Below, piece after piece: positions 37,655-40,729 of a stretch of DNA of 64,000 nucleotides. Source of the stretch: Escherichia coli (GTDB lineage Bacteria > Pseudomonadota > Gammaproteobacteria > Enterobacterales > Enterobacteriaceae); NCBI RefSeq assembly GCF_016026235.1, contig NZ_CP065613.1. One strand, given 5' to 3'. Under the pieces are notes generated by a model. That model had not been told where the DNA came from. It did not search any database and worked only from the letters and a program-made list of their open reading frames with translations. Every line of letters starts with the position of its first letter. Position 1 is the stretch's first letter. The position numbers and the translations under genes were made by a program.

Positions 37655-39016
37655 GTGGAAAAAGAAAATATCACCCTCGATCCGCGTTCTTCATTTACTC
37701 CATCTTCGTCGGCAGATATTCCCGTGCCACCAGATGGATTAGTTCAACGCAGTACCCGAATTAAACGCATTCAAACCACCGCCATGTTGTTATTATTTTT
37801 TGCGGCGGTAATCAATTATCTCGACCGCAGTTCGCTGTCGGTAGCAAATTTAACGATTCGTGAAGAATTGGGATTAAGTGCCACCGAAATCGGCGCTTTG
37901 CTCTCCGTGTTTTCACTCGCTTACGGGATTGCGCAACTTCCTTGCGGCCCACTATTGGATCGTAAAGGCCCACGCCTGATGCTGGGACTGGGGATGTTCT
38001 TCTGGTCACTGTTCCAGGCCATGTCTGGCATGGTGCACAGCTTTACGCAGTTCGTGTTGGTGCGTATCGGTATGGGGATTGGTGAAGCGCCGATGAACCC
38101 ATGTGGCGTAAAAGTCATTAACGACTGGTTCAACATCAAAGAGCGCGGACGCCCGATGGGCTTCTTCAACGCAGCTTCTACCATTGGCGTTGCCGTAAGC
38201 CCACCGATTCTGGCGGCGATGATGCTGGTGATGGGCTGGCGTGGGATGTTTATTACCATTGGTGTGCTGGGGATTTTTCTCGCCATTGGCTGGTATATGC
38301 TCTATCGCAACCGCGAGCACGTAGAACTGACTGCCGTTGAACAAGCTTATCTCAATGCAGGTAGCGTCAATGCCCGCCGAGATCCGCTCAGTTTTGCCGA
38401 ATGGCGCAGCCTGTTCCGTAACCGCACAATGTGGGGAATGATGCTCGGATTCAGTGGCATCAACTACACTGCGTGGCTGTATCTGGCCTGGCTTCCTGGT
38501 TACCTGCAAACAGCCTATAACCTGGATTTAAAAAGCACAGGGTTGATGGCGGCTATCCCTTTCCTGTTTGGGGCTGCCGGGATGCTGGTCAACGGTTACG
38601 TTACTGACTGGCTGGTCAAAGGGGGAATGGCTCCGATTAAAAGCCGTAAGATCTGCATTATTGCCGGGATGTTCTGTTCTGCCGCCTTTACGCTGGTCGT
38701 ACCGCAAGCGACAACATCCATGACGGCGGTTCTGCTGATTGGCATGGCACTGTTCTGTATTCACTTTGCCGGAACATCCTGCTGGGGCTTGATCCACGTC
38801 GCAGTTGCTTCTCGCATGACGGCGTCGGTGGGCAGTATCCAGAACTTTGCCAGCTTCATCTGCGTCTCTTTTGCGCCGATCATTACTGGTTTTATTGTTG
38901 ATACCACCCACTCATTCCGTCTGGCACTAATCATCTGCGGTTGCGTCACCGCAGCGGGAGCACTGGCGTACATCTTCCTGGTTCGTCAGCCGATCAACGA
39001 CCCGCGTAAAGATTAA
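37655..39016 (+). CDS. lgoT: MFS L-galactonate transporter LgoT (YjjL)
   Basis: 453 aa, 12-TM MFS. Confidence 0.88.
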   Translation: MEKENITLDPRSSFTPSSSADIPVPPDGLVQRSTRIKRIQTTAMLLLFFAAVINYLDRSSLSVANLTIREELGLSATEIGALLSVFSLAYGIAQLPCGPLLDRKGPRLMLGLGMFFWSLFQAMSGMVHSFTQFVLVRIGMGIGEAPMNPCGVKVINDWFNIKERGRPMGFFNAASTIGVAVSPPILAAMMLVMGWRGMFITIGVLGIFLAIGWYMLYRNREHVELTAVEQAYLNAGSVNARRDPLSFAEWRSLFRNRTMWGMMLGFSGINYTAWLYLAWLPGYLQTAYNLDLKSTGLMAAIPFLFGAAGMLVNGYVTDWLVKGGMAPIKSRKICIIAGMFCSAAFTLVVPQATTSMTAVLLIGMALFCIHFAGTSCWGLIHVAVASRMTASVGSIQNFASFICVSFAPIITGFIVDTTHSFRLALIICGCVTAAGALAYIFLVRQPINDPRKD

Positions 39017-39023
39017 ACTCCCT

Positions 39024-39059
39024 ATGCCCGATAACATTTTGCTTATCGGGCATTTTTAT
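39024..39059 (+). terminator. rho-independent terminator after lgoT
   Basis: atgcccgataa...ttatcgggcat stem-loop followed by ttttat. Confidence 0.55.
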
Positions 39060-39064
39060 GGCGA

Positions 39065-40729
39065 TTAAAACGTTTCCCAGTTCTCCCCGCTATCTGCCAC
39101 TGCCATTTTACGCGGCGTAGCTGGCGTCACGTTTTTTACCACAGCCGATGTTTCACGCTGCTGTTGCTGCTGTTGCTGAATCCGGAACACTGCCACAGCT
39201 TCGGTCAGGCGACTGGCCTGCTCTTCCAGCGCGGCGGCGGCAGCGGCAGATTCTTCCACCAGCGCAGCGTTCTGTTGAGTTACCCGGTCCATCTCAGCAA
39301 CCGCTAAGCCAACCTGATCGATACCACGGCTCTGCTCATCAGAAGCAGAAGCAATTTCGCCCATAATGTCCGTCACGCGGGTCACGGCACTGACAATCTC
39401 CGCCATTGTTTCCCCTGCGCTTTCGACCAGCGTAGAGCCAACATCTACTTTCCCCACCGAGTCTTCAATCAGGCTTTTAATTTCACGAGCCGCCTGAGCG
39501 CTGCGCTGGGCCAGATTACGCACTTCACCCGCGACCACCGCAAAACCGCGCCCTTGCTCACCCGCGCGCGCTGCTTCAACCGCCGCGTTCAAAGCCAGAA
39601 TATTGGTCTGGAAGGCAATGCCGTCAATTACGCTGATAATATCGGCGATTTTCTGCGAACTGGTGGAGATATCGCGCATAGTCTGCACCACGTTATCTAC
39701 CACTTTGCCGCCGCGTTGCGCCGTTTCAGAAGCACTTAACGCCAGGTGGCTGGCCTGGCGCGCATTTTCGGCGTTCTGTTTCACCGTTGCGGTCAGTTGC
39801 TCCATGCTGGCTGCCGTCTCTTCCAGCGAAGCGGCCTGTTGCTCGGTGCGCGAAGAGAGATCGTTATTGCCGGTAGCGATTTCGCTGGCACCGCTATAGA
39901 TGGCATTGGCCCCGTTGCGCACATCACCGACGGTACGCATCAGCTCTCCCTGCATATGGCGCAAACTCTCTGCCAGTTGCCCCATCTCATTAGAGCCATC
40001 CACCTCAATCGGTTTCACCAGATCGCCGCCTGCAATATGACGAATGCTGTCAATCAGGCGATTCATTGGCGCTACCAACGAGGCTTTAATACCGAACCAG
40101 ACGGCGAAGATGACTGCCAGTACGACGATCATCACGCCCACCAGAATCCACATCGCCTGGCTGTAGGAGGCATTATTATCGCTGACGGCGATATCATAGA
40201 GCCGATCGTTTTGCTCCATGTAAGCCACATACTGCTTCTCGAAACCGTCCTGATATCCCTGGGTCGGCTGATCAAAGAACTCGTTGATTTTGCCTGCACC
40301 TAACAGTTGGATCAGCTCCGCCAGCGCATTGTGATAAATATCGTAATTACGTTTGATCTCTGCCGCTGCGGCGGTGCTCTGACGCGGGTCACGCGGCAAC
40401 GCTTCGTAATCCGCCCAGTTTTTTTCCGCCTGTTTCAGCGAAATACTGGCACTCTCCATCAGCTCAGCAACGGTTGAACCGCTACCAATATTATTCTGAT
40501 CCATCATGTAGCGGATACCCGCGCGGTTGAGGGTGTTACGCGTCTGCAACAACGCGACCCAGCTGCCATTCAGCGTGGATTGCTGCTGGCGAATGGTTTG
40601 TAAAACAGTGAAATTTTCTTTGTCATTCTTTAAGGCATTAAAGAACAGACCGCCTGATGTCAGTTGTAAAAGGCCAAAAACGGCCAAAACCAGCAGTAAG
40701 CTGGTCACAATTTTGATACGTTTTAACAT
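39065..40729 (-). CDS. tsr: methyl-accepting chemotaxis protein I (serine sensor) Tsr
   Basis: 554 aa, C-terminal NWETF pentapeptide, 7-residue Gln tract before RETSAVV. Confidence 0.9.

Follow-up and report, generated by a model that had tools for sequence, protein, structure and literature searches.

Results

The tsr gene and its surroundings in the window

We have analysed a 64-kb stretch of Escherichia coli DNA, referred to below as the window, which carries on its minus strand at 39065–40729 the coding sequence of tsr, the gene for the serine chemoreceptor (methyl-accepting chemotaxis protein I), as an open reading frame of 554 codons plus a stop. A preliminary description of this DNA had named the gene tsr, and its domains, its full-length alignment with the K-12 protein and its synteny all bear this out. 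The encoded protein contains the Pfam domains PF02203 TarH (E 5e-55), PF00672 HAMP and PF00015 MCPsignal (E 2e-62), each above its gathering score, and the gene order btsT-tsr-lgoT is that of MG1655, with 98.0% DNA identity between the two tsr genes. The C-terminus reads ...SGENWETF and places the NWETF pentapeptide at residues 550–554 (39068–39082, minus strand), a motif that is kept across orthologues while the tail past residue 517 varies. The window protein is Tsr on every point of membership that could be tested. Its serine sensing and its docking of CheR and CheB are predicted from its near-identity to K-12 Tsr.

K-12 Tsr (551 aa; PDB: 6S1K, 8C5V and 1QU7) has the same gene, synteny, domain architecture and NWETF terminus. 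Residues 1–551 of the K-12 protein (PDB: 6S1K) align end to end with residues 1–554 of the window protein at 1132 bits, and the sole gap is one of three residues inside a run of glutamines. The difference of three codons from the 551 aa of K-12, which the preliminary description had given, is thus real and lies within the Gln tract: the window protein has seven Gln where K-12 has four at the start of the tether. Apart from this gap, window Tsr departs from K-12 Tsr by four substitutions only, one close to residue 178 (H→Y) and three in the tail (T→N, A→T and E→G).

We searched 5426 complete E. coli genomes for tsr and found a match in about 5385–5387, with tsr as the annotation among the matches listed; about 40 have no match at all. 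In strain PCN061 (NZ_CP006636.1) the gene is cut into two pieces by an IS1A element, and in strain a7 (NZ_CP122496.1) the first 212 nt alone remain. Three matches come from records that are labelled plasmid, not the expected place of a core chemotaxis gene, and could reflect misassigned replicons or large chromosomal inserts. A record labelled Chryseobacterium sp. 18061 (CACSKA010000015.1) encodes an enterobacterial-type Tsr of 555 aa with an NWETF end and 80% sensor-domain identity; the label is probably the result of contamination or mislabelling of the assembly.

The gene convergent with tsr varies by strain. It is lgoT, encoding an MFS transporter, in the window (37655–39016), K-12, O104:H21 and O6:H16, and in FEA3, BEN2908, LF82 and 1217KP its place beside tsr is taken by the large permease of a TRAP transporter. 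The switch marks a replacement or indel boundary ∼40 bp beyond the tsr stop codon. In the interval between lgoT and tsr, which converge in the window, positions 39024–39053 form a hairpin with an 11-bp stem followed by a T-run, which is probably the terminator of lgoT and may serve both genes. Within tsr, a second small repeat at 39231–39249 (GCGGCA × 3.2, Tandem Repeats Finder score 31) encodes part of an Ala run, which is conserved across the Enterobacteriaceae orthologues and constant in length among the aligned alleles.

A perfect 9-bp tandem repeat encodes the Gln run

The polymorphic element of tsr, as defined by the sequence, by Tandem Repeats Finder and by allele alignment, is a perfect 9-bp tandem repeat, CAGCAACAG × 2.33, at 39158–39178 on the minus strand. 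It encodes Gln518–Gln524 and is denoted Q7 here, the other alleles being named in the same way by their number of Gln. The plus strand of this interval reads CTGCTGTTGCTGCTGTTGCTG and the minus strand CAG CAA CAG CAG CAA CAG CAG, so that the seven consecutive Gln codons of the preliminary description are present where it had placed them. A search for the corresponding pattern, (YTG)7, gave a single occurrence in the window, and 100 dinucleotide-preserving shuffles gave none. Tandem Repeats Finder gives a best period of 9 for 39157–39178, with 2.4 copies, 100% matches and a score of 44. At period 3 the tract matches at only 78% (score 30), because CAA breaks CAG at fixed positions. With at least two perfect copies arranged head to tail, the tract has the form of an in-frame VNTR.

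Gln→His changes (CAG→CAT) are found inside the repeat in a few strains, as QQQQQQH in 06-00048 and as Q8HQ in 2014C-3338 and DCE7. Breaks of this kind in the tract should make the repeat more stable.

Four length alleles in E. coli

That the tract length varies among strains, as the preliminary description had anticipated, is seen in a series of four alleles. In K-12 (BW25113, MG1655) the tract reads ATT CAG CAA CAG CAG CGT, with four Gln, in a gene of 1656 bp. Alleles Q4, Q7, Q10 and Q13 have gene lengths of 1656, 1665, 1674 and 1683 bp and carry 1.33, 2.33, 3.33 and 4.33 copies of CAGCAACAG, respectively. Q4 is carried by K-12 and BEN2908, Q7 by the window strain, Q10 by FEA3, LF82 and O104:H21, and Q13 by RM14723, in which the 13 Gln were verified. 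The length alleles recur in many independent complete genomes, which rules out an assembly artefact as their source.

When a 121-nt query centred on the tract was matched without gaps at ≥95% identity, a Q7-length tract was found in 4059 of 5382 complete E. coli genomes (∼75%). A 9-nt gap caps identity at 92.6%, and this band therefore excludes other tract lengths. The ∼1323 remaining genomes include ∼1180 with Q4 (∼22% of genomes), ∼100 with Q10 and 3 with Q13. For Q4, the ≥95% band of 1270 genomes also holds Q10 alleles joined from two pieces. For Q10, the estimate comes from the 102 genomes in the 90–95% identity band; in a separate listing at least 60 have a 130-nt span, including LF82, NRG 857C and O104:H21. 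Among the matches listed, the sources of Q10 are humans, mice, dogs, soil and poultry. A further allele of Q7 length is interrupted (CAG CAA GAG CAG CAA CGC CAG, encoding QQEQQRQ) and accounts for the other 40 of the ∼1323 genomes. Among evenly spaced whole-gene matches, 30 of 39 have a gene of 1665 bp and 9 of 39 one of 1656 bp. All class counts are estimates from BLAST identity bands in a genome collection biased towards sequenced lineages, and are not population frequencies.

The unit of change is 9 bp

All length differences in ∼140 evenly spaced alignment rows that we sampled are multiples of 9 bp. Synthetic Q6 and Q8 queries built on the flanks of the window found no genome at ≥99% identity, in a search that is sensitive only for the commonest flank haplotype and in which the Q7 query matches 1624 genomes in the same band. 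These results, together with the poor match at period 3, lead us to reject a trinucleotide (CAG) microsatellite that changes in single-codon steps, and the slippage of trinucleotides suggested in the preliminary description gives way to a varying unit of 9 bp. We also rejected a contingency or phase-variation locus, as the 9-bp unit always stays in frame and is present in only 1.3–4.3 copies. In all alleles examined, the product is a full-length Tsr with NWETF at its end.

By its behaviour the tsr tract is a low-copy in-frame VNTR. It resembles in-frame coding loci of the VNTR or MLVA type in its perfect head-to-tail units, its whole-unit polymorphism and the recurrence of changes on the same haplotype (see below), but differs from them in its very low copy number (1.3–4.3), in a unit that codes only for Gln and in its position in a disordered tether.

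Seven residues is the ancestral length

To place the E. coli alleles among their relatives, the Tsr sensor domain was searched against one genome per species, which gave 80 loci. The open reading frame was extracted from 70 of these; the other 10 were left out as the start-codon pattern gave no reading frame. Orthologues of 554 aa make up 46 of the 70 and are the modal class in Enterobacteriaceae, the others being 551–556 aa apart from one of 569 aa. After ...AVFRI, the orthologues of Citrobacter, Salmonella, Enterobacter and Leclercia fill the seven slots with QQEQQR/K and then A or S. These slots read QQTQQRQ and QQAQQRQ in two divergent genomes of the genus, Escherichia sp. E1V33 and E. coli SCPM-O-B-8794, the only Escherichia genomes from a scan that gave no locus of E. 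albertii, E. fergusonii or the E. coli type strain and thus lacks the closest outgroups. On a tsr tree rooted on these two genomes, the QQEQQRQ allele of E. coli, which has a clearly diverged haplotype, is basal to the other E. coli alleles. The outgroup length of 554 aa, the seven slots and the basal position of QQEQQRQ together indicate that 554 aa and seven slots are ancestral.

Parsimony agrees with this. Fitch parsimony gives a root tract length of 7, and Sankoff parsimony on the perfect-repeat clade alone gives root costs of 9 for Q7, 10 for Q10 and 11 for Q4, a small margin obtained from 19 alleles that were picked to span the length classes and not at random. With a length of 7 as the ancestral state, the K-12 Q4 allele is most simply one that has lost one unit, and we suggest that it is best read as a 9-bp contraction.

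The preliminary description had read the window tract as expanded relative to K-12, and a recent triplet expansion in the window strain, with three CAG/CAA codons added to a Q4 tract like that of K-12, would fit the four Gln and 551 aa of K-12 and a tract that is built of Gln triplets. We consider such an expansion very improbable. Q7 is the majority length in E. coli, at ∼75% of genomes, and it equals the outgroups in both protein length (554 aa) and slot count; the tract matches perfectly at period 9 and at only 78% at period 3; and neither Q6 nor Q8 was seen on the commonest flank haplotype, with every sampled length difference a multiple of 9 bp. It is K-12 that appears contracted. The count of Gln codons in an alignment with K-12 and other strains, which the preliminary description had put forward as the check on its claim, thus gave a divided answer: K-12, with four codons, does differ, but the seven-slot length is common to most E. 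coli.

A more intricate course is that the loss of a unit from QQEQQRQ came first and produced Q4, from which Q7 arose by later re-duplication, so that Q4 would be older than Q7 within the perfect-repeat clade and 554 aa older still. The number of events is about three by either course (a substitution, a deletion and a duplication, as against three substitutions), and the intermediates QQQQQRQ and QQEQQQQ, through which point mutations would pass, were not found on the window flank haplotype. On the other side stand the Sankoff cost of 11 for a Q4 root against 9 for Q7, the presence of Q7 on all sampled backgrounds at a frequency 3–4 times higher, and the finding that the several unrelated local haplotypes with Q4 have Q7 alleles as their closest relatives. 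We regard this detour through Q4 as unlikely, and favour a direct descent of Q7 from the ancestral seven slots.

Length changes are recurrent

On a gene tree of 19 E. coli alleles, 9 changes of tract length are required, a number no lower than that from random shuffles (mean 8.4). The four-gamete test shows strong intragenic recombination in tsr, with all four gametes at 743 of 1891 informative site pairs, so that some of the spread in tract length over the tree is due to recombination and not to new mutation. As the gene tree alone is therefore no proof of recurrence, we relied on local haplotypes, defined as 100 nt on each side of the tract. With identical ±100-nt flanks, the tract is Q7 in the window and DA33135 and Q10 in O104:H21; in a second pair, again with identical ±100-nt flanks, it is Q10 in FEA3 and Q13 in RM14723. 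Q4 is carried by at least three local haplotypes and Q10 by at least four. Outside the tract, SF-173 (Q4) and clone D i2 (Q7) are alike at all but 6 of 1638 sites. We conclude that length changes in tsr are recurrent, since in two pairs one haplotype is found with different copy numbers, with recombination as a partial confounder.

Could recombination account for the whole pattern? If a few old length alleles, each of single origin, had been spread by homologous recombination, no recurrent slippage would be needed. The strong four-gamete signal within tsr is in keeping with this, and the lgoT/TRAP permease difference downstream of the gene points to exchange at the locus. Such spreading would nevertheless have to produce identical ±100-nt flanks with different copy numbers in two independent pairs, and to bring Q4 and Q10 onto no fewer than three local haplotypes each, by way of conversion tracts limited to the ∼20–40 bp of the repeat. 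Recombination without recurrent change is thus distinctly unlikely as a full account, and repeated gain and loss of units remains our preferred reading.

The repeat forms the start of the tether

Beyond the Gln run, residues 525–549 (25 residues; 39083–39157, minus strand) form the rest of the non-conserved, unstructured C-terminal tether (PMC4692393; PMC10561060; PDB: 8C5V), which ends at the NWETF pentapeptide, the site at which CheR and CheB dock with high affinity (PMC7390727; see also PMC4692393). In constructs of the Parkinson laboratory, residue 517 is taken as the end of the conserved Tsr sequence and the residues beyond it are non-conserved (PMC4692393). In an iScience 2023 study, the Tsr tether is given as 30 residues counted from I517 (PMC10561060), and the Tsr chain in PDB: 8C5V stops at residue 516. 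By the boundary between helix and linker that these secondary sources give, the Gln run is therefore the receptor-proximal start of the unstructured tether. The preliminary description was right to associate the tract with the tether that leads to NWETF; the tract does not lie just upstream of this tether, but is its first segment, from I517 on. The tether lengths expected for Q4, Q7, Q10 and Q13 are 30, 33, 36 and 39 residues.

How far such steps could move the docked enzymes is suggested by a tethered-particle-motion study of CheR on Tar, in which the most probable position of CheR moves linearly, by 0.128 ± 0.048 nm per residue, over tethers of 22, 29, 34 and 46 aa (PMC10561060). By extrapolation, one repeat unit would shift CheR by ∼0.4 nm, compared with site distances of 2.1–7.05 nm; the changes tested in Tar start at 5 residues and the steps of the tsr repeat are 3 residues. 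The engineered Tar variants likewise alter the number of residues between receptor body and NWETF, but they are laboratory deletions or insertions of 5–12 residues beside the pentapeptide, whereas the tsr alleles arose naturally and differ in steps of 3 residues, at the receptor-proximal end of the tether. Linkers found in nature span 29–91 aa, are unconserved in sequence and keep a charge pattern (bioRxiv 2024.03.07.583918). Gln is uncharged, so gain or loss of units leaves the charge of the tether unchanged. Judging from the published Tar data, the effect of tract length on the reach of CheR and CheB is probably small and near-neutral, as would be expected from the small CheR shift, the 29–91 aa range of natural linkers and the unchanged charge.

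The coexistence of four length classes might instead point to an adaptive tuning knob, in which selection keeps tether lengths that set the speed or precision of adaptation, and with it serine and AI-2 chemotaxis, according to niche. Tether length does alter CheR positioning in Tar (PMC10561060). We find this reading quite improbable, as the low copy number (1.3–4.3 units) should make mutability modest, no host or niche pattern is seen among the listed matches (the sources of Q10 alone run from humans to soil), linkers tolerate 29–91 aa, and the predicted shift is only ∼0.4 nm per unit.

Discussion

Here, we have shown that the Gln run of Tsr in the window is built from a perfect 9-bp repeat, that E. 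coli carries a series of four length alleles of this repeat with Q7 as the most frequent, that seven residues is the ancestral length and that changes in length have occurred repeatedly. We consider it very probable that Q7 is the prevailing E. coli form of a short tandem repeat, in frame and with a 9-bp unit, at the start of the Tsr tether, and that this repeat gains and loses units and is probably near-neutral.

The course of events that we propose is as follows. The ancestral Enterobacteriaceae segment would have been an imperfect 9-bp duplication, CAG CAA GAG / CAG CAA CGC / CAG, encoding QQEQQRQ in a protein of 554 aa. In the main E. coli lineage, this segment would have become the perfect CAGCAACAG × 2.33 of Q7, leaving protein length unchanged. 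The perfect repeat could then have gained and lost whole 9-bp units, giving rise to Q4, with one unit lost, in K-12, and to Q10 and Q13 in other strains. Slipped-strand mispairing or unequal exchange between units is the mechanism that we infer for these changes. Each step would amount to three neutral residues added or removed, as Gln carries no charge and the tether that holds the run is non-conserved and unstructured.

In a limited search of the open-access literature, we found no description of a natural length polymorphism in tsr and no record of the use of this repeat as a typing locus. This in-frame repeat polymorphism is of an ordinary kind and concerns a gene that is well known, whose tether and NWETF docking are textbook knowledge, and the Q7 allele is already annotated in thousands of RefSeq genomes. 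In the literature searched, tether-length models of CheR action rest on engineered tether lengths in Tar only, and Q4, Q7, Q10 and Q13 offer a ready-made natural set for such models of CheR and CheB action on Tsr. It is rather doubtful that the four-state tether polymorphism of 30, 33, 36 and 39 residues in natural E. coli measurably shifts the kinetics or precision of adaptation. If it did, nearly all quantitative chemotaxis work would, by its use of the K-12 receptor, have dealt with a shortened minority allele and not with the species norm.

For biology at large the polymorphism carries little weight, and its main practical value lies in recognising the K-12 length as the minority form. As the 551-aa Tsr of K-12 appears to be a minority contracted allele, we suggest that 551 aa should not serve as the reference length of Tsr for the species.
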